Shown here: in pieces, positions 7,155-46,276 of the stretch
How positions within the stretch are numbered: position 1 is the stretch's first letter
How the letters are laid out: every line of letters starts with the position of its first letter
Assembly (NCBI GenBank): GCA_045530935.1
Contig: JAZSDC010000031.1
Location: forward strand, 1 to 58,284
DNA from: Candidatus Enterousia sp.
Lineage (GTDB): Bacteria; Pseudomonadota; Alphaproteobacteria; Rs-D84
Direction of reading: 5' to 3'
DNA length: 58,284 nt
Notes under the pieces: generated by a model
The model's database searches: none
Told to the model about the DNA's origin: nothing
The model's input: only the letters and a program-made list of their open reading frames with translations
Translations under genes and position numbers: made by a program

Positions 7155-8238
7155 ACGTATATTCTTTTGGCATCAAGATAAACATCTGCCCCTGGGCATG
7201 CTGTCCCTGGGCAAATTTATACGCTTCGTCCCCTTTGCCAAAGAATATATCCGCACGAATCCATCCACGAATCGCGCTGCCTGTATCCTGGGCAATCATC
7301 AGACGACGGAACGGACGTCCATCAGACAGATTTGTATTAACATATACCGGCAACCCCAACGTATATAAATCATCATCCATCGCAACACTGCGTATTTTTG
7401 ACAACGGTGTCCCCAGCTTTCCAATCACATCTGGTGGCGTTGATTCATAGAAATAAACATAACGCGGATTTTTATAAATAACATCTTTTGCCAAAGACGG
7501 ATTGGCCTTTAAATGTTGCCATACCGCTTCGGATGAAAAACCGCCCTTGGGTCTGATTCCACGATTACGCAGTTCTTCCCCAATTGATTTAAATGGCATA
7601 TCATTTACAGCAGCAAAATTTAATTTTACATCTGTACCATCTTCCAACCGCAGATTTCCTGAGCCCTGTATTTGAATATTTTGCACATCAACAATATTTG
7701 CCCAATATAAAACCCGTCCGATTTTCTTTTCTACGATATCCTTTTTTGCAACACCTTTATACTTACGTCCATCCGTTGGGATTCCCATCAAAGGTTCATT
7801 ACAAACCGCAGTCTGGGTTCTGCACGCAGGAATAATCGGCGAATAATAACCTGTATAGGTCCCCTTGTCCCCCCCATTGTCATTATAAATCTGATACGGC
7901 TGGAAATTAGATTCAAACCATGCGCGCACTGTTGCGATATCCGCAGACGCACTTGGCAGCATGCGACATTTTTCTGCAAACAATTCTTTATCTGGGATTA
8001 AACGCCCAGTATATTGAATTTTTGCCTTGCACGAATTACGGAACGCCTGCAACGCATAACGCACATCATCGTCGCGCCATCCCGGCAAATCCGAATATGA
8101 TACCCGCTTGAAATTAGATGGAATTACAGAATTATCCCCCACAACCGTCGGCGTTGAAACATCACACGATGTTAATACAGCCACTGCCCCTGCTGTTAAT
8201 AATAAACGCAAAACTGAATTTTTTTGAAAAAATCGCAT
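7138..8238 (-). CDS. mltA: Membrane-bound lytic murein transglycosylase A (lipoprotein)
   Basis: Lipobox LTSC; DLPGW, TGYYSP, IQIQGSG, NPRYVYF, AQDTGSAIRG..RADIFFG. Confidence 0.93.
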   Translation of the reverse strand: MRFFQKNSVLRLLLTAGAVAVLTSCDVSTPTVVGDNSVIPSNFKRVSYSDLPGWRDDDVRYALQAFRNSCKAKIQYTGRLIPDKELFAEKCRMLPSASADIATVRAWFESNFQPYQIYNDNGGDKGTYTGYYSPIIPACRTQTAVCNEPLMGIPTDGRKYKGVAKKDIVEKKIGRVLYWANIVDVQNIQIQGSGNLRLEDGTDVKLNFAAVNDMPFKSIGEELRNRGIRPKGGFSSEAVWQHLKANPSLAKDVIYKNPRYVYFYESTPPDVIGKLGTPLSKIRSVAMDDDLYTLGLPVYVNTNLSDGRPFRRLMIAQDTGSAIRGWIRADIFFGKGDEAYKFAQGQHAQGQMFILMPKEYTYVKPN

Positions 8239-8353
8239 TTTTTAGCAATCCCCCCACTTGTAAAAGTTTTTTATAATGCTATATTAACATAAAATCAGGA
8301 TGCAAGTCCAGACCATAAAAGATTTGAACAAAAAACACCGAAGGAGATAAAAC

Positions 8354-8779
8354 ATGGCAAAGTTCAATATCATTTCACAATTTTTAAAAGACATTTCTTT
8401 TGAAAGTCCAAACGTACCAGAATTATTTTTCAAAAATGATAATGGCCAGGCAAAACTAGAAATTAATATCGATATCCAAATCAAAGGTGCTGACAATAAT
8501 CTGTTTATGGTTGATGTAATTACCAAGGTTCATTCAAAATTAGAAGCAGACGATAAATCAATCTTTTTAATTGAATCCACATATTCTGGTCTGGTTCAAA
8601 TGGAAGAAGAAAAAGATGACGAAACAAAAAAACGCACACTGTTGATTGATGTTCCAACATTATTGTTCCCCGCAGTACGTGCATTAGTAACACGTTTGAC
8701 CAGTGAATCTGGATTTCCAACATTCACAATGCAACCTGTCGATTTTGCACAATTGTACGAACAAAAACAGGCAAAATAA
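8354..8779 (+). CDS. secB: Protein-export chaperone SecB
   Basis: AAGGAG SD; QFLKDISFESP, PTLLFPAVR, GFP...PVDFAQLY. Confidence 0.93.
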   Translation: MAKFNIISQFLKDISFESPNVPELFFKNDNGQAKLEINIDIQIKGADNNLFMVDVITKVHSKLEADDKSIFLIESTYSGLVQMEEEKDDETKKRTLLIDVPTLLFPAVRALVTRLTSESGFPTFTMQPVDFAQLYEQKQAK

Positions 8780-8794
8780 TATAAATTATCACTC

Positions 8795-8825
8795 AAAAAA
8801 ATCCCCAAAACAGGGGATTTTTTTT
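8795..8825. terminator. Bidirectional intrinsic terminator between secB and ftsK
   Basis: aaaaaaatcccc-aaaaca-ggggattttttt between convergent genes. Confidence 0.75.
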
Positions 8826-32758: not shown

Positions 32759-33841
32759 TTATTCTTCTGTTTCTGACAACACATCGTCTTCATCATCGAT
32801 TGGACCTGTTGTCATTTCCTCAGCGATACCCGATGCACGCGCCATAATTTTATCCAACAATTCTTGCTGTACATCCGGTCTATCTTTTAGCCATTGTCGT
32901 GCATTGGCCTCGCCCTGTCCCATACGTTCACTATTATACGAATAGAAACTGCCTGCCTTTTCAATAAAATCATATTTAACACCCATATCCAAGATTTCAC
33001 TTATACGCGATATACCTTCGCCATACATAATTTTGAAGTCGACTGTACGGAATGGCGGCGCGACCTTATTTTTAACAACCTTTACACGTGTTTCATTTCC
33101 AATAATATTTTCTTTATCCTTAATCTGCCCTGTACGACGAATATCCAGGCGTACAGACGCATAGAACTTTAACGCATTCCCACCAGAAGTCGTTTCTGGA
33201 TTACCAAACATAACCCCAATTTTCATACGAATTTGATTAATAAATATTAACAAAGTATTACTGCGCGAAACAGACCCTGCCAATTTTTTCAAGCTCTGAC
33301 TCATCAATCGGGCAGTTGTACCAACGAACGAATCGCCAATATTACCTTCTAATTCTGCTTTTGGCACCAGGGCCGCCACAGAATCGATAACCACAACATC
33401 AACAGCCCCTGATTTAATCAAAGTATCTGCAATTTCCAACGCCTGTTCACCAGAATCCGGCTGCGAAATAATTAAATTAGAAACATCCACACCCAATTTT
33501 TTTGCATAGCTGGGGTCCAACGCATTTTCTGCATCAATATATGCACACGTACCACCTTTTTTCTGCGATTCTGCCACTGCATGCAAGGCCAGTGTTGTTT
33601 TTCCAGAAGATTCTGGCCCATATATTTCAACGATACGTCCCTTTGGGTATCCACCAATTCCCAGTGCAATATCCAATCCCAACGACCCAGAAGAGATTGC
33701 CTCTATATTCTGCTGTGAACCATCCCCCATCTTCATAATAGCTTCTTTACCAAACTGTTTTTGAATTTGTGCCAACGCCGATTCCAACGCTGGATTTTTT
33801 GCAAACAGTCCACTATCCTTGCTAACTTCTTTTTTTGCCAT
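32759..33841 (-). CDS. recA: Recombinase RecA
   Basis: [39 protein letters not shown]. Confidence 0.99.
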
Positions 33842-40617: not shown

Positions 40618-41410
40618 CCGCCCCACCCTTGTCCAACAATCGTTTATACGCTTCTTTTTTTGAAATACCTGTACGCTGTGCCAACTGTGCCGCCGCGCTT
40701 TTCATAGAAGTCGCAGCAATATCATTAACTATATCAGAAATCTCATCATCGCTCATTGGTTTTTCTGGTCGTGGCGCCACAACAATAACAATTTCTCCAC
40801 GCGGTGGTGTTATACCTAATAATTCAGCTGGATATCCAATTATTGTTTCTTCGTGAATTTTAGTTATTTCACGCACAATTGCGATTTGTCGTTCTGGCAT
40901 AACGCGCGCCATCACAGCAATTGTTGCCATAACCCGATTCGGACTTTCATAATAAATGATAGTATGCGGAATTTTATTATCATCGCGTAATTTTTTCTCG
41001 TCAAAAAAACCACAAAATGTAAATCTATCAGTTGGGAATCCAGACAGCACCAATGCCGAAATAGCCGCCACTGGTCCTGGCACAACAAAAACAGGCACAT
41101 TTGCCGCACGCGCTGCACGCACCAAACGAAATCCCGGGTCTGAAATTCCCGGCATACCCGCATCACTAACACATGCAATCGCCGCACCATTTTGAATTTT
41201 TTCAATTATACCAGACACAACATCACGTTCATTATGCTCATGACAAGATATACGCTTTGTCTTGATATCAAAATGTGCTGCCAACTTGCCAAACACACGT
41301 GTATCTTCTGCTGCAATTAAATCTACATTTTGCAAAATTTGTACTGCACGCGGTGACATATCAGACAAATTTCCAATCGGCGTACCAACAATATAAAGCC
41401 CTGTTTGCAT
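40610..41410 (-). CDS. rsmI: 16S rRNA C1402 2'-O-methyltransferase
   Basis: LYIVGTPIGNLSD, AEDTR, SDAGMPGISDPG, YESPNR, REITKIHEE. Confidence 0.95.
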   Translation of the reverse strand: MQTGLYIVGTPIGNLSDMSPRAVQILQNVDLIAAEDTRVFGKLAAHFDIKTKRISCHEHNERDVVSGIIEKIQNGAAIACVSDAGMPGISDPGFRLVRAARAANVPVFVVPGPVAAISALVLSGFPTDRFTFCGFFDEKKLRDDNKIPHTIIYYESPNRVMATIAVMARVMPERQIAIVREITKIHEETIIGYPAELLGITPPRGEIVIVVAPRPEKPMSDDEISDIVNDIAATSMKSAAAQLAQRTGISKKEAYKRLLDKGGADD

Positions 41411-41458
41411 TTAAAATCCTTTTATAGTAAAATGATACAAAATAAAATGGATTTTTCA

Positions 41459-43066
41459 ATGTTTAAGAACAGATTTTTCGGATACGTTATATCACTTTTA
41501 ATCCTGGCTGGCTGCACAGGCACCCACGACAACACAGGTCCTGAAAACGATTGGTTTGGCGAATATGGGAATTTAACAACAAATACCCCCGCAAACATGT
41601 ATGGGATGTTATCTGATGGATATGGCGCCACCATTTCTGATACTGCACACAACATAGCGGTATTATTACCCCTATCTGGCGACAAAGCGCCTGTTGGAAA
41701 AACAATTCGAACATCTGTTGAAACTGCAATTTTACAAAGCGGCGCAAAAAATCTGAATGTATCTTTTTATGATACAACCGACAACCTATCAGAAACATTT
41801 AAAACTGTTCTGGCGGGCAACCCAGAAGTAATTATTGGTCCTGTGTTTGCAAACAACGCCAAAATTGTCCGTGATAACAAGCCTGAAAATTTACCAGTGT
41901 TATCATTTACATCTGATGCAACCGCGGTTGGTGATGGTGTTATGACAATGGCATTAATGCCAACAAACAGCATTGAAACAATCGTACGCGAAATGCATTC
42001 CGACAACATAAAGAATTTCATAATCATGGCGCCTAACACTGATTCTGGTCATCTGATGGCAGGAACCGCCCTACGTGCTGCCGAATTATCTGAATTGGAA
42101 CCAATTGGGATATTTTATTACAATGAAAAAGATACAGATTCTATAAAAAACACCGCACTGGATGCGTCACTAAACAATGCGCGCACCGCCGCCCATACAC
42201 GTGCCCGCCAGATATTATCTGACATACTTATTAATGAAAAACTATCAGCAATCGAAAGATCTCGTCTAAATATACAGCTAGACAGACTGTCTAAAAAAGA
42301 AACAATTGGACATTTGCCATATAACGCGATCCTGTTCCTTGGCGATGGTGACGACACAAAAACACTTGCTTCATTTTTACGTTACTATAACGTCGGTGCA
42401 AATGATGTAAAGTTTTACGGCACAACAATGTGGGATGGTTCAGATATAATCACAGACCTGACAATGTCCGGCGCCAAATACGCAACATTATCTGATATAA
42501 ACCCTGAATTCAAAACTATTTATGAAAAAGTATCTGGTTCTATACCTGGCAGACTGGCGACATTTGGATATGATGCTGCAAACATGGCAATTGGTATGAT
42601 ATATTCTGACAAATCAAATGTTGCATACCTACTGGACCCCAGTGGATACATCGGTACAGATGGCATGTTTCGCTTGAAACCAACTGGCGACAACGAACGC
42701 GCACTACGTATAGTAAAATTAAATGGAACAGATACACCAATTGAATCAAAACCTGCCGCCAGCAGCTTTATATCCCCATTATATAATATTGAACAACGCC
42801 ACATAAAACCTGCGGATGCCATGGAATTAAAAACACCTGGAATTAACCCTGATAACCACATTCAAATACCAGACCGGTTTACTTCTAAATATCGCAGCAA
42901 AACAATTGGCGCAAACATCAGCGAACCAACCAACTTTCAACGCAGTAAAATCATTGCATTTCTGCCCGAAGATGACAGTGAACCAATTAAATCTGAAAAT
43001 TTCAAACCAATTAAACAGGAATCTGTCAACCGTTCATATATCGATGAATACGAAATAGAAGAATAA
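41459..43066 (+). CDS. LpoA-like penicillin-binding protein activator / PBP1-fold lipoprotein
   Basis: Lipobox ILAGC; IAVLLPLSG, IIGPVF, LATFGYDA, GMFRL; divergent from rsmI. Start at 41447 or 41459. Confidence 0.8.
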   Translation: MFKNRFFGYVISLLILAGCTGTHDNTGPENDWFGEYGNLTTNTPANMYGMLSDGYGATISDTAHNIAVLLPLSGDKAPVGKTIRTSVETAILQSGAKNLNVSFYDTTDNLSETFKTVLAGNPEVIIGPVFANNAKIVRDNKPENLPVLSFTSDATAVGDGVMTMALMPTNSIETIVREMHSDNIKNFIIMAPNTDSGHLMAGTALRAAELSELEPIGIFYYNEKDTDSIKNTALDASLNNARTAAHTRARQILSDILINEKLSAIERSRLNIQLDRLSKKETIGHLPYNAILFLGDGDDTKTLASFLRYYNVGANDVKFYGTTMWDGSDIITDLTMSGAKYATLSDINPEFKTIYEKVSGSIPGRLATFGYDAANMAIGMIYSDKSNVAYLLDPSGYIGTDGMFRLKPTGDNERALRIVKLNGTDTPIESKPAASSFISPLYNIEQRHIKPADAMELKTPGINPDNHIQIPDRFTSKYRSKTIGANISEPTNFQRSKIIAFLPEDDSEPIKSENFKPIKQESVNRSYIDEYEIEE

Positions 43067-43078
43067 CTACAAACTAAT

Positions 43079-43109
43079 ATAAACAACCCACAAAATGTGG
43101 GTTGTTTAT
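43079..43109. terminator. Bidirectional terminator
   Basis: ataaacaacccaca-aaa-tgtgggttgtttat. Confidence 0.8.
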
Positions 43110-43133
43110 TGTCGCAGATAAAACTATTAATAT

Positions 43134-43571
43134 TTAATCAGATACCATATCTCCACATAGTTCTACAGCATAACCCCCATCATAATTCATCTCTGTGCCA
43201 CAAAATAAACGCCACGAACAATTAGAAACTTCATTATCTCCTGCCATTTCTTTTAATATATTATAACTTATAGTATTGACCAAACATTTTCCAGGTTTAA
43301 TATATTGTGCCGGATTCTCAATAGATAAAAACGTCACTGTTTTTTCTTTATTATTATAAATTTGCAAAATTTCTGGTGTTTCATCTATATAGTATAAAAA
43401 GTCTCCACTTGTACCTTTGCTAATAACAACTGCATTTTCATCCCAGTTTTGTCTTTGTTGATTTATAAAAGTGACAAAATCAGCATCTCCTTCAGGATGT
43501 GTTGTAAACTCTTCGGCAAAAGCATTTATTGATACAACGGCTAATAAACCAGCAAAAATATATTTTTTCAT
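43134..43571 (-). CDS. Secreted hypothetical protein, AT-rich, directly behind the duplicated tRNA-Tyr 3' end
   Basis: AAGGA SD; MKKYIFAGLLAVVSINAFA signal peptide; four Cys. Confidence 0.7.
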   Translation of the reverse strand: MKKYIFAGLLAVVSINAFAEEFTTHPEGDADFVTFINQQRQNWDENAVVISKGTSGDFLYYIDETPEILQIYNNKEKTVTFLSIENPAQYIKPGKCLVNTISYNILKEMAGDNEVSNCSWRLFCGTEMNYDGGYAVELCGDMVSD

Positions 43572-43606
43572 AACGTATCCTTTATTTAGAAAAACTATAT
43601 CACAAA

Positions 43607-43672
43607 ATAAACCACAACACACTAAAAATAAATGGTCGCTTTTCAGCAACCATTTATTTTTAGTGGTGGGAG
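43607..43672. repeat. 66-bp direct repeat, copy A (tRNA-Tyr 3' end plus terminator hairpin)
   Basis: Identical to 44419-44484; the minus strand reads CTCCCACCA-CTAAAAATAAATGGT...ACCATTTATTTTTAG-TGTGTTGTGGTTTAT. Confidence 0.95.
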
Positions 43673-43758
43673 ACAGCTTGCACTAATCGAGCAGAAAACA
43701 AACAAGAATTTTCCGATTTAATGTTGCAAGTGAAATTGTTTAAAGAACGGTGGTTAAA

Positions 43759-44076
43759 TTAATATGCCATATGGCTTAAACCATAAACCAATAATATAAA
43801 CCATAAAACACACAATACTATGGCGAAAAGTCCGACATGCTTTTTATATTTTGGCGCAATAATTCTTGATACAAAGAAAACAGCGATAGTTGGTAATATT
43901 AATAAATCTAAAATAATAAAAACATTTCCGTATGAATTCCATAGTGCAGAACTATAAAAAAAGTGTTCAATCCATGCACAAATCATTGTGCAAACCCACC
44001 ATGTAAAACATATAGCAGGCAATAATACAACCCAACGAAAAACATCAAGACCTTTGTATGAATTAGTTTTTTTCAT
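43759..44076 (-). CDS. Small three-TM membrane protein between the direct repeats
   Basis: 105 aa, three hydrophobic segments; upstream TGnTATAAT and an AAGGG SD-like motif. Confidence 0.7.
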   Translation of the reverse strand: MKKTNSYKGLDVFRWVVLLPAICFTWWVCTMICAWIEHFFYSSALWNSYGNVFIILDLLILPTIAVFFVSRIIAPKYKKHVGLFAIVLCVLWFILLVYGLSHMAY

Positions 44077-44290
44077 GTTTTTACCCTTTTGTTGATAAAA
44101 TTATATCACATAATTTTATCATACTAAAATTAAAAACCGCCTCGGTGAATTCGAACAGAGCAAACACTTGGAAATCCAGACCGTTCGAAGATTGGTAAAA
44201 ATTAGTGTTTTTTAAATATGATATTTTCGAACCTTTAAAACTATTAGAAAACAAAAAGAAAACCACACCTTTATGGTGCGGTGTATCTTT

Positions 44291-44418
44291 TGGTGGGAGT
44301 GGCTGATTCCCTCGGACAAATATCCTGCGGGGCATTCGTTAGCACTCGAACTGCGCACTGCTTGTTCTCGCTTACTCATTGTCGAACCTGCAATCTTTCG
44401 ATTGCGTGTTTCAAATCC
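44291..44418 (-). repeat. tRNA-linked structured repeat ending in a copy of the tRNA-Tyr 3' end
   Basis: Minus strand: GGATTTGAAAC..GCAATC-GAAA-GATTGC-AGGTTCGAC...AATCAGCCACTCCCACCA. The last 15 nt match the tRNA-Tyr 3' end, and a hairpin plus U-tract follows (about 44253-44290). Confidence 0.75.
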
Positions 44419-44484
44419 ATAAACCACAACACACTAAAAATAAATGGTCGCTTTTCAGCAACCATTTATTTTTAGTGGTGGGAG
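44419..44484. repeat. 66-bp direct repeat, copy B (overlaps the tRNA-Tyr CCA end and its terminator)
   Basis: Identical to 43607-43672. Confidence 0.95.
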
Positions 44485-44562
44485 TGGCTGGATTCGAACC
44501 AGCTCAGGCTTAAGCCAACAGATTTACAGTCTGCCCCGGCTCTCCAACTCCGGCGCACGCCC
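44476..44562 (-). tRNA. tRNA-Tyr(GUA)
   Basis: GGGCGTG..GCAGA-CTGTAAA-TCTGT, long variable arm, GCTGG-TTCGAAT-CCAGC, encoded CCA. Confidence 0.95.
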
Positions 44563-44567
44563 AATCC

Positions 44568-44642
44568 TGGTGCGGGCAGCGGGAATCGAACCCGCATTTC
44601 AAGCTTGGAAGGCTTGCATACTAGCCTTTGTACTATGCCCGC
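44568..44642 (-). tRNA. tRNA-Gly(UCC)
   Basis: GCGGGCA..CAAGC-CTTCCAA-GCTTG..GCGGG-TTCGATT-CCCGC-TGCCCGC-A-CCA. Confidence 0.97.
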
Positions 44643-44662
44643 AACAAATTTAAAGCCCTGTG

Positions 44663-44690
44663 ATTATATACTAAATGAAAATAAAATCAA
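44663..44690 (-). promoter_or_regulatory. Putative promoter of the tRNA-Gly/tRNA-Tyr operon
   Basis: TTGATT-16 nt-TATAAT on the minus strand with an AT-rich upstream tract. Confidence 0.55.
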
Positions 44691-44915
44691 GAATAAAGTA
44701 AAAGCAAAAATTTTTTTATTCCCCCCGCAATGGGAATAAAAATAAAAGATAATGGTATAGATATGGACAGTGCCGTCCCTGTAGTGTACAAACACTACCC
44801 CCCTTGCACTTGGAACAGAATGAACAAAAATGGTTTAGATAAAAGAAAAACCGACAACGCAGTGTACAGAAGTTACATAAGTTGTCGGTTTTACTTTTAG
44901 ATAAATTATTTTTGT

Positions 44916-45632
44916 TTATTCTGCGGCGGTGAATACCTTCTGCACATCATCATTCGCATCCAGCGCATCAACCAGCTTTTCTAATTTAGCATAAGCTTCA
45001 TCATCTAAATCCATTGGCATGTTTGGCAACCATGTCAGTTCAGCCTGTTCTGGTTCGCCCAGCTTATCTGCCAAGAATTTTTGAACATTGATAAAATCTT
45101 CTGGTTTTGTTGTGATGATAAAACCTTCTTCAGATGCCTCCATATTATCAACTTCGGCCTCCATAATAATTTCCATCATTTCATCTTCGGTTTTGCCGAT
45201 TGATGCAGGATACATAATCTGACCTGCGCGTGTAAACATAAACACAACAGACCCTTCTTCACCCATATTACCGCCATTTTTACCAAAGATATTGCGAATT
45301 TCTGGCACCGTACGGCGTGGATTGTCGGTCAATGCCTCTACAATAACAGGCACTGCACCCGGGCCATATCCTTCATAGCGCACAGCTTCATAACTTTCTG
45401 TATTTGCACCTGACGCCTTTTCAATTGCGCGTTTAATATTATCGTTTGGCATAGAATTCTTGCGTGCGGTCAGAATTGCCAAACGCAGGCGTGGATTATT
45501 ATCTGGATTTTTATCGCCCAACTTAGCCGCCATAGTAATTTCACGCGCCAGTTTTGTAAACAAACCACTGCGTGCTGCATCGGCAGCGCCCTTTTTATGT
45601 TGAATATTATGCCATTTACTGTGTCCACTCAT
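44916..45632 (-). CDS. yebC: YebC/PmpR family protein
   Basis: MSGHSKWHNIQHKKG, NPRLRLA, YEGYGPG, LTDN, DDVQKV. Confidence 0.96.
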   Translation of the reverse strand: MSGHSKWHNIQHKKGAADAARSGLFTKLAREITMAAKLGDKNPDNNPRLRLAILTARKNSMPNDNIKRAIEKASGANTESYEAVRYEGYGPGAVPVIVEALTDNPRRTVPEIRNIFGKNGGNMGEEGSVVFMFTRAGQIMYPASIGKTEDEMMEIIMEAEVDNMEASEEGFIITTKPEDFINVQKFLADKLGEPEQAELTWLPNMPMDLDDEAYAKLEKLVDALDANDDVQKVFTAAE

Positions 45633-45682
45633 ATTTGACCTTTTTATTTATTTAGATTAAAATTACCCCAAAAGGATAACAA

Positions 45683-46276
45683 ATGATTGGAAAATTGCAA
45701 GGCATTGTTGATTATATCGGCGACGGTTTTATCATTTTATTAACAAACGGCGTTGGATACAAGGTACACACCGCCGAATACCTGACCCATAAATCAACGG
45801 TGGAACTGTGGATTGAAACAGTTGTACGCGAAGATTCCATTCGTCTGTTTGGTTTTACAACCCTGAACGGTCAAAGCCTGTTTAACATGCTGACAACTGT
45901 ATCTGGTGTAGGACCTAAGGTTGCGTTGGCAATACTGGGGACAATTAATTCTGATACATTAATGTCTGCGATTGCCACAAACGATGCAAAAACAATCGCC
46001 ACCGCCCCCGGCGTTGGTAAAAAGATGGCAGAAAAAATCATTGTTGAACTGAAAAACAAAATCGGTGGCGCATCTGCGACATTATTTGCACCAAATTCCG
46101 GCACAAGCGCGTCCGCATCATCTGCCCTGCCCGATTTGCTGATGGCATTGGAAGCCTTGGGCTATCGCCGTCTGAATATAATTGAAATGGCACAACACCT
46201 GGTAAATCAAAACCCAACCGCAGATGTATCAAAACTGGTCCCATTGGCATTAAAAGAAATCAGCAAAGCTAAATAA
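45683..46276 (+). CDS. ruvA: Holliday junction branch migration protein RuvA
   Basis: MIGKLQG, GVGY, VREDSIRLFGF, VSGVGPK, PGVGKK.AEKIIVELK, ALEALGY. Confidence 0.96.
   Translation: MIGKLQGIVDYIGDGFIILLTNGVGYKVHTAEYLTHKSTVELWIETVVREDSIRLFGFTTLNGQSLFNMLTTVSGVGPKVALAILGTINSDTLMSAIATNDAKTIATAPGVGKKMAEKIIVELKNKIGGASATLFAPNSGTSASASSALPDLLMALEALGYRRLNIIEMAQHLVNQNPTADVSKLVPLALKEISKAK

Follow-up and report, generated by a model that had tools for sequence, protein, structure and literature searches.

Small integrase-free gene units stacked at the 3' end of tRNA-Tyr in Candidatus Enterousia, and their probable genus-wide docking site

The window examined here is the whole 58,284-nucleotide (nt) contig JAZSDC010000031.1 of Candidatus Enterousia sp. 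(assembly GCA_045530935.1), and it holds an array of small accessory units between its tRNA-Tyr(gta) gene and a convergent gene for an LppC-like lipoprotein. The comparison of this locus among relatives suggests that the gap between the two genes is probably a genus-wide docking site for small integrase-free units. The gap ranges between 62 and 4871 bp in 21 loci (1413 bp in this window) and is filled with unrelated cargo, which bears out the variation between strains expected by the initial annotation of this DNA, where the array was described as repeat-delimited single-gene cassettes. The parts of the array are read on the minus strand, in the direction of the tRNA, in the order tRNA-Tyr, terminator hairpin Ta with 13 nt (copy B of a 66-bp repeat), element EL, module L, gene TM3, module R, Ta with 13 nt again (copy A), gene SecOrph, a terminator (43109 to 43079) and the end of the LppC-like gene, and they are located as follows:

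44476..44562, minus strand: tRNA-Tyr(gta), by ARAGORN and Rfam (tRNA, 39.3 bits); its 3' end ...AGCCACTCCCACCA is taken as the attachment point
44419..44484, minus strand: copy B of the 66-bp repeat, made of the final 9 nt of tRNA-Tyr, hairpin Ta (44432-44477) and 13 nt
44291..44418, minus strand: EL, a 128-nt non-coding tRNA-linked element that starts with a hairpin plus GGTTCGAC and ends in a copy of the tRNA-Tyr end, AGCCACTCCCACCA (44291-44304)
44110..44290, minus strand: L module, the left cassette end, made of terminator Tb, a TTCGAA stretch and the beginning of an extended -10; the compared loci hold 37 L copies
44262-44282: terminator Tb, the first part of L, AAAGATACACCGCAC...GTGCGG, also written AAAGATACACCGCACC...GGTGTGGTTTTC
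43759..44076, minus strand: TM3, a cargo gene of 105 amino acids (aa) with three hydrophobic segments, without Pfam family
43664..43750, minus strand: R module, forming the right end of the cassette, ...TTCTTGTTTGTTTTCTGCTCGATTAGTGCAAGCTGT+CTCCCACCA, the latter a decayed 3' part of tRNA-Tyr; the compared loci hold 30 R copies
43607..43672, minus strand: copy A of the 66-bp repeat, made of the 9-nt tRNA end (the final bases of R), Ta and 13 nt
43134..43571, minus strand: SecOrph, a cargo gene of 145 aa with a signal-peptide-like N-terminus, without Pfam family
43079..43109, minus strand: terminator hairpin separating SecOrph from the convergent LppC-like gene (terminator and folding scans)
41405..43066, plus strand: LppC/LpoA-like lipoprotein gene, convergent on the array (Pfam PF04348), found 3' of tRNA-Tyr in 21 loci

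The tRNA-Tyr regions of 20 congeners were compared along with 20 places that matched a query made of the R–L junction, and tRNA-Tyr was present in 19 of the former and 18 of the latter. In one congener (G006) the gap of 62 bp corresponds to the terminator alone, while elsewhere the arrays hold a Fic domain protein with a VbhA-type antitoxin, methyltransferases, GNAT acetyltransferases, a subtilase-like protein, M15 and S51 peptidases, RgpF, a metallophosphoesterase, DUF3419, glycosyltransferases and many proteins without a family. The common layout is tRNA, then EL or EL2 where present (EL2 being a second element type, seen after tRNA-Tyr in other genomes, as at L020:7381-7521 of G023), then L-cargo-R, L-cargo-R and so on, followed by a terminator and the LppC-like gene. 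The L and R modules are 75–95% alike between cassettes around unrelated cargo, which is usually one gene in either orientation, in units of 0.5–2.2 kb that carry the same L and R ends. L is composed of a terminator hairpin, often a TTCGAA-rich stretch, and then a promoter-like extended -10; R consists of about 90–115 conserved nt, the final part of which is a decayed copy of the tRNA-Tyr 3' end, ...CTCCCACCA. In 33 of 37 L copies, L starts immediately past a ...CACCA-type end, whether of the tRNA, R, EL or EL2. R is followed directly by L in 11 of 30 R copies, and in most of the remaining ones by a hairpin resembling the native tRNA-Tyr terminator of cassette-free genomes, for example R followed by GAAATAAAAACACCCCC... 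in G023 as against the tRNA followed by GAAATAAAAATACCCCC... in G006. The native terminator is thus displaced outward together with older material, as insertion at the CCA end of the tRNA predicts.

These comparisons also modify how the window itself is to be read. The two 66-nt copies are 100% identical with a start-to-start spacing of 812 bp, which direct comparison confirmed for 43607-43672 and 44419-44484, and they are the only forward copies in the whole genome (1,013,212 bases, 43 contigs). That the repeat consists of the final 9 nt of tRNA-Tyr and its terminator hairpin agrees with the ARAGORN boundary and with folding, in which Ta forms a 20-pair hairpin with a T-rich tail (-33.3 kcal/mol, z = -9.0, with 0 of 200 shuffles as stable). 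The repeats enclose the tRNA-linked element and one open reading frame (ORF) with three hydrophobic segments, the three-TM gene first described, with the additional terminator at 44262-44282; five terminator sites were found by the terminator scan where 1.2 were expected. The second orphan, with its signal-peptide-like N-terminus, does start just after copy A (at 43571, 35 nt past it), and the decayed T-arm-like tract before copy A is present as claimed (CTCGATTAGTGCAAGCTGT-CTCCCACCA), the R terminus in the window reading ...GCTCGATTAGTGCAAGCTGT-CTCCCACCA. The 812 bp between the repeat starts nevertheless consist of two stacked units, namely Ta+EL (185 bp) and L-TM3-R, and the 66 bp are the exact stretch common to "R end, Ta, 13 nt, EL" and "tRNA end, Ta, 13 nt, SecOrph leader"; outside it, R and the tRNA differ on the left, and EL and the SecOrph leader on the right. 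The general cassette boundary is a 7–9-nt tRNA end inside a conserved R–L junction rather than the 66-bp repeat. Of the proposed repeat-delimited single-gene cassette, the mobile units are real, while the 66 bp do not serve as the general boundary and the 812 bp do not form one unit; the refuting conditions named in the annotation were all decided in its favour.

In the window, L has three TTCGAA motifs after Tb and an extended -10 (TGATATAAT) at 44108 to 44100, and SecOrph is preceded by an extended -10-like TGATATAGT, read directly from the sequence. The consensus promoter scan gave no -35/-10 promoter for either TM3 or SecOrph, which corrects the claim of a gene with its own promoter. Neither protein matched a Pfam family, and the best Atlas score was 0.87, a lead only; SecOrph is without an R end of its own in this window. 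The motif GGTTCGAA, lying ~58 nt past the joint, is kept in about two thirds of the relatives' L copies (a count by eye). Read on the plus strand (43664-43765), R contains an open frame ending ...ENKQEF.DLMQRVKEF.EKWL... in several genomes, and an indel in the window preserves this frame on the opposite strand; the frame may derive from the end of a lost gene or belong to a small ORF across the R–L joint.

The joints are widely distributed in the genus. The R–L junction query matched 37 of 121 genomes drawn from the genus (24 of the 87 good-quality ones), the matches of a genome being almost always confined to a single contig. An exact 18-nt scan for "CCA plus the start of L", with one genome per species, returned 85 stretches; among the 80 listed, 70 belong to gut metagenome-assembled genomes (MAGs) titled Candidatus Enterousia sp., Alphaproteobacteria bacterium or uncultured proteobacterium, and the other 10 are without the expected following hairpin, about that many chance matches being expected. 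The 71 true CCA–L joints follow tRNA-Tyr 16 times, tRNA-Val(cac) twice and tRNA-Leu(tag) once, and R-, EL- or EL2-type ends otherwise.

The cargo is likewise found in different species and different sites. TM3 occurs in 12 of the 121 genomes and SecOrph in 33. In G044 and G107, TM3 (96% and 93% amino acid identity, respectively) lies inside L-TM3-R cassettes at tRNA-Tyr in other array contexts, and the block 43664-44136, comprising promoter region, TM3 and R, has 97.9% and 97.0% nucleotide identity, with its right edge falling exactly on the CCA joint. The flanking proteins of these two genomes have diverged more (LppC-like 63–64%, RsmI-like 89–91%, EngB-like 89–93%; the labels LpoA-like, RsmI-like and EngB-like are our own reading of Pfam matches). 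A full L-SecOrph-R is located directly past the CCA of tRNA-Leu(tag) in G130, where CCCACCA alone is shared at the joint and R retains the Tyr-type ACTCCCACCA, and in G070 SecOrph is preceded by an R–L junction. The only match to the G130 flank, in the relative G126 (74% identity), has tRNA-Leu(tag), ~110 nt and the same neighbour gene without a cassette, a suggestive arrangement that would fit insertion in G130, the two being too diverged to place the exact joint. These comparisons show that cargo has been transferred between species and between tRNA genes, with insertion at three different tRNA genes that share only CCACCA. A TM3 paralogue of 35% identity was also observed in the genome at C6:1071-1355, ~3.4 kb downstream of the tRNA-Leu(tag) pseudo-copy region described below.

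Presence and absence of the 812 bp were directly seen in Logan contigs from four animal-gut runs (X1, X3, X7 and X8, from four studies) aligned to 42000-46000; these are assembled contigs and not raw reads, the best run containing 0.37 of the sequence words of 43000-45000, and parts left uncovered in a single run were not counted as evidence. In X7 one contig of 1147 nt (depth 8.5) covers 43160-43606 and then 44419-44720, skipping exactly 812. The joint is ambiguous over 66 bases, the shorter arm measures 255 nt, and the 1145 aligned nt contain 23 differing letters and one gap. By joining 43606 to 44419 exactly, this contig is the empty site that had been predicted, tRNA-Tyr followed by Ta+13 nt and SecOrph, and the 812 bp are a real insertion/deletion and a live polymorphism. 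The X8 contig joins 44305 to 44476 (skipping 44306-44475), which is the EL-less form also seen in G016. In one X3 contig the R end (43674) runs into CTCCCACCA and L (44300), meaning that TM3 is followed by another L cassette, and a second X3 contig passes from R (43664) to 13 nt plus EL (44427) with unknown letters in between, this joint being either an array variant or a circle-type joint. TM3 is covered by contigs in X1, X3 and X8, each with 4 to 10 differing letters.

The same data bear on whether the arrangement was made by assembly, with the contig of a MAG threading two co-existing strains through the 66-bp repeat. The genome is a 43-contig MAG, and strains with and without the 812 bp do exist; yet R followed by CTAAAAATAA... 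occurs independently in G016, the Ta–EL joint recurs in G019 and G083, an X1 contig covers 43518-43693 (though with just 21 nt in R), and a shared end of 9 nt is too short to mislead an assembler, all of which makes such an artefact scarcely credible.

G016 also informs the history of the locus. There R, a decayed Ta and then SecOrph are collinear with the window (82% over 740 nt), which is what a separate insertion at this tRNA–Ta joint is expected to leave. A circularly permuted cassette was considered for SecOrph in G016 and rejected, since its parts come in the wrong order for that and the alignment is plainly collinear with the decayed Ta. As Ta has decayed in G016, the perfect identity of the copies in the window points to a recent event or a recent conversion, in line with the recent activity that the annotation had read from it. 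Two histories would give the present arrangement: a circle of Ta-EL and L-TM3-R may have recombined with an empty site of the X7 type at any point of the 66 bp, or EL may have entered first, duplicating the tRNA end and Ta, with L-TM3-R then entering at the CCA of EL.

As to the mechanism, units would enter exactly past a ...CCCACCA end, either that of the tRNA itself or a copy brought by an earlier unit, and entry past any such copy would build up arrays of the type tRNA, unit, unit, displaced native terminator. The reaction would be a conservative site-specific recombination within the final 6–9 nt of the tRNA, the partners being a circular R–L junction and a tRNA end, and the enzyme being encoded elsewhere or arriving transiently. 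Site-specific recombination immediately after ...CCCACCA by an enzyme encoded outside the array is favoured, at roughly an even chance. The principal competitor is homologous recombination alone, with the tRNA, the terminators and L and R acting as portable homology for swaps after DNA uptake and with RecA crossing over at the 66-bp repeats. It draws on the perfect identity over 66 bp, on the likeness of L and R between cassettes and on the want of an array-linked recombinase, but it leaves unaccounted for the full cassettes right after tRNA-Leu(tag) and tRNA-Val(cac), which share just 6–7 nt with the Tyr end, the 33 of 37 L copies that begin exactly at the base past CCA, and the native-type terminators moved to the far end of the arrays; DprA, moreover, was not found in the genome, which is 93.8% complete. 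As the sole explanation homologous recombination is regarded as unlikely, while the 812-bp gain or loss seen here could equally well be the work of RecA, given the perfect homology over 66 bp.

Several observations weigh against site-specific entry or narrow what the counts can say. All genomes compared are MAGs and include close kin, so that the counts are not independent events. No cognate recombinase was found, and a trans-acting recombinase and RecA, both put forward in the initial annotation, stay in contention; no element with both an integrase and the R–L junction occurred in 41 loci, and in viral contigs the CCA–L joint pattern and the R motif each gave 0 matches in an exact-pattern scan. 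P4-like integrases (at least 39% identity to the integrase on contig C16) are present in 8 of 37 L/R-positive genomes and in 27 of 84 others, and hence show no association with the presence of L and R. No clear inverted core-type binding sites were read around the joint, and no circular form was observed among the assembled contigs of the runs. On its left, the TM3 identity block starts within L (L position 155) and not at the CCA joint, which looks more like homologous exchange. Both RecA (33008-33790 in the window) and ComEC (in the genome) are present, so that homologous exchange stays a serious rival, chiefly for the 812-bp event and for this left edge.

For the enzyme supposed by site-specific entry, the genome offers six tyrosine-recombinase matches and one large serine recombinase as trans-acting candidates: a XerC-like and a XerD-like protein, two P4-like integrases (C16 and C30), a 333-aa and a broken recombinase on C19, and the C15 large serine recombinase (524 aa, 7230-8804), which ends ~180 nt from the 3' end of tRNA-Pro(tgg) in convergent orientation. 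Within the window the nearest tyrosine-recombinase gene is Xer-like (PF00589, 19750-20688), ~23 kb off, and no integrase lies within 20 kb of the array head, in agreement with the absence of a nearby integrase noted at first. In the arrays themselves, 0 of 116 cargo-region ORFs (24, being 2 from the window and 22 from relatives, plus 92) match integrase, resolvase or transposase Pfam families. At four places with weak L-like matches or a C16-type integrase, the sole likeness was a Tb-like terminator following tRNA-Asn, and an R–L junction was absent.

Two of the integrase-type proteins have features of their own. The C16 P4-like integrase (389 aa, G000:C16:156-1325) is 99–100% identical in G000, G066, G103, G101 and G024, which are different species, and this identity points to a recently spreading element; no tRNA was present in the stretches fetched around the C16-type integrase in two of the five genomes. 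The C35 integrase-like protein (336 aa, G000:C35:32348-33358) has arm- and core-binding domains with no PF00589 match, is found in most genus genomes, has ~25–28% identity to a P4-like integrase and lacks the HxxR motif by our own reading; it may be a domesticated, inactive integrase.

A more far-reaching form of site-specific entry is an integron-like system on tRNA 3' ends, in which R–CCCACCA–L would be the portable site, a chromosomal enzyme outside the cassettes would act on it, and single genes, each with a terminator and promoter of its own, would be shuffled between species and tRNA genes. This is a tentative proposal, held possible without being likely, and its candidate enzymes would be Xer, another resident tyrosine recombinase helped by the degenerate C35 protein, or an unrecognised enzyme.

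The element EL, which precedes L in the window, belongs to a genome-wide family. It holds two covarying hairpins, and its aligned copies display compensatory changes (for example CCCC...GGG to GCGGC...GCC) and stem swaps around the conserved loop AAGCNNTGCGCA. Ta+EL forms a 185-bp unit with its own terminator. This unit, bounded by AGCCACTCCCACCA, is absent in G016, where tRNA-Tyr is followed directly by L. Rfam has no family for EL and its hairpins: over 42000-46000, at E <= 1, it matched the tRNAs and otherwise gave chance microRNA-type matches below gathering scores. Eight of the 44 tRNAs of the genome have a downstream copy of their own last 14 nt (at most one mismatch), and in seven of them, Gly-ccc, Leu-tag, Glu-ttc, Ser-tga, Tyr, Val-gac and Arg-acg, the first copy lies 142–234 nt downstream; the EL-like copies that follow tRNA-Gln (two), Ser and Arg terminate in the 3' end of the respective tRNA. 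The same architecture, suspected by the annotation at other tRNA loci, is thus seen there both as own-3'-end copies and, in other species, as L cassettes after Leu(tag) and Val(cac).

It is this family that would favour a duplicative insertion of EL, whereby a route driven by a nuclease or by repair makes a second copy of everything between the T-loop of the tRNA and the far side of the terminator, comparable to a long target duplication, and L-TM3-R enters the CCA of the copy later; the two 66-bp copies would then be the flanks of the EL event. At other tRNAs an EL-type element is indeed flanked on either side by the tRNA's own 3' end and a terminator of similar type, as at tRNA-Arg(acg), where the duplication spans about 100 nt, and in part at Val(gac) and Glu(ttc), and every EL copy ends in its own tRNA's 3' end. 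The T-loop-like motif GTTCGA occurs six times in 963 bp (43600-44562; 6.2 per kb, as compared with 0.36 per kb in the whole window), of which the tRNA has one, EL two and L three, and a mini GIY-YIG ORF of ~80 aa lies ~190 nt past tRNA-Thr(ggt) in the same orientation (G000:C30:9279-9491). The Tyr locus, however, has no nuclease gene and specifically no GIY-YIG ORF, the Ta–EL joint is present in G019 and G083 without a second Ta downstream, and the L-R cassettes themselves would be left unexplained; the duplicative route is considered improbable.

EL2 was further observed as two copies after tRNA-Glu(ttc) (G000:C18:28940-29155). Its 5' end is the reverse complement of a tRNA 3' end, so that its ends can pair like an acceptor/T minihelix. 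At G000:C6:4560-4720, tRNA-Leu(tag) is followed by an EL-type core and then by a tRNA pseudo-copy extending from the D-arm to CCA with an altered T-loop.

The eighth tRNA with a downstream copy, tRNA-Met(cat), bounds a 7.4-kb island (G000:C30:23797-31240) of the classical integrase-bearing kind. The direct repeat on its two sides spans at least 37 nt, from the anticodon stem to CCA; the island encodes a P4-like integrase of 394 aa, and its ends carry TTTGCTACC-type repeats and do not resemble L and R. Such an island recalls a further explanation, that the tRNA-Tyr arrays are leftovers of a large island, integrative and conjugative element (ICE) or prophage after loss of the integrase and other genes, tRNA 3' ends being standard attachment (att) sites. 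A full ICE or prophage here in relatives was the case named beforehand as contrary to the cassette interpretation, and none of the 41 loci holds an ICE or prophage, nor any integrase, phage or conjugation gene at the site; relaxase and type IV secretion system Pfam families are also at 0 of 116 ORFs in or beside the arrays of these loci. Together with units of 0.5–2.2 kb that have the same L and R ends around unrelated cargo, and with the different arm repeats of the tRNA-Met island, which is without L or R, this makes a decay remnant very improbable.

The flank of the array on the tRNA side contains ordinary genes by Pfam (YebC, RuvA and an ABC transporter), and two features stand next to the array head:

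44568..44642, minus strand: tRNA-Gly(tcc), the first of the tRNA pair (ARAGORN; Rfam tRNA, 71 bits)
44916..45632, minus strand: YebC/TACO1 family gene, the conserved flank upstream of the tRNA pair (Pfam PF01709 and PF20772)

The GC content is 0.31 in 43001-44000, and mostly 0.35–0.45 in the rest of the window. Between tRNA-Gly and the YebC gene lies a palindromic dispersed repeat (44721-44923, arms 44816-44858 and 44881-44923) with many copies of 70–96% identity in its own genome and across the genus, and in the metagenome contigs small indels and replaced segments cluster at it, with joints such as 44720 to 44799 and 44763 to 44852 or 44861 and varying inserted letters.

These gut Alphaproteobacteria have genomes of ~1 Mb, and the locus bears on how such genomes still gain accessory genes. 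The flexible genes at this locus are packaged as insulated one-gene units, consisting of terminator, promoter-like element, gene and tRNA-end mimic, whose ends are common to at least 37 of the genomes searched, and the units move between species and tRNA genes without a recombinase of their own. If a host or helper enzyme serves these sites, they would constitute a cassette system parallel to integrons and built on tRNA ends; should the integron-like proposal hold, it could be the main route of gene gain in these 1-Mb genomes, operating between tRNA genes that end in CCACCA. If homologous recombination is responsible, conserved non-coding ends would serve as portable homology for gene exchange in reduced genomes.

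No description of such a system was found in the accessible literature, subscription papers and supplements lying outside that scope; in passages of one paper on Enterousia genomes the words integrase, mobile, tRNA and genomic island are absent. Bellanger et al. reportedly described cis-mobilizable elements (CIMEs) and site-specific tandem accretion in 2011. CIMEs have lost the genes for integration and transfer and retained their att ends, and tandem accretion takes place at the att sites of ICEs and genomic islands (PMC6323972). The present units are similar in having lost, or never had, integration or transfer genes, in having attL/attR-like ends and in stacking in tandem at one site; they differ in that no cognate ICE or integrase-bearing element was found for them, in their size of 0.2–2.2 kb with mostly one gene and their own terminator and promoter-like element, and in having the same ends around many unrelated cargos in 37 of 121 genus genomes. 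The tycheposons of Prochlorococcus carry their own tyrosine (or serine) recombinase and replication genes (bioRxiv 10.1101/2020.12.28.424599). The arrays resemble them in a streamlined genome, integration at tRNA genes, partial-tRNA repeats that also separate the units of an array, newcomers that push older units outward and niche-type cargo, and depart from them in having a unit-encoded recombinase in 0 of 41 loci and an identity with the tRNA made of the final 6–9 nt and a decayed T-arm. As in tRNA elements generally, insertion is at a tRNA gene, with a full tRNA and a partial tRNA copy as the flanks.

The tRNA-linked repeats of the E. coli tyrT operon (RtT RNA, RF00391) are similar in being repeats downstream of a tRNA-Tyr gene that include copies of its 3' end; no RF00391 match was obtained at E <= 1 in 42000-46000, however, and the present units enclose protein genes and vary between strains. 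Integrons are composed of single-gene cassettes, mostly promoterless, with attC hairpins and an intI/attI/Pc platform. The units described here share with them single-gene mobility, conserved ends, one fixed site and an enzyme that is not on the cassette, whereas the array head is tRNA-Gly/tRNA-Tyr after the YebC gene without adjacent intI, attI or Pc; the junctions are R–L composites of 200–300 nt around a tRNA end in place of attC hairpins; and the cassettes carry a terminator and a promoter-like element, with the cargo oriented either way.

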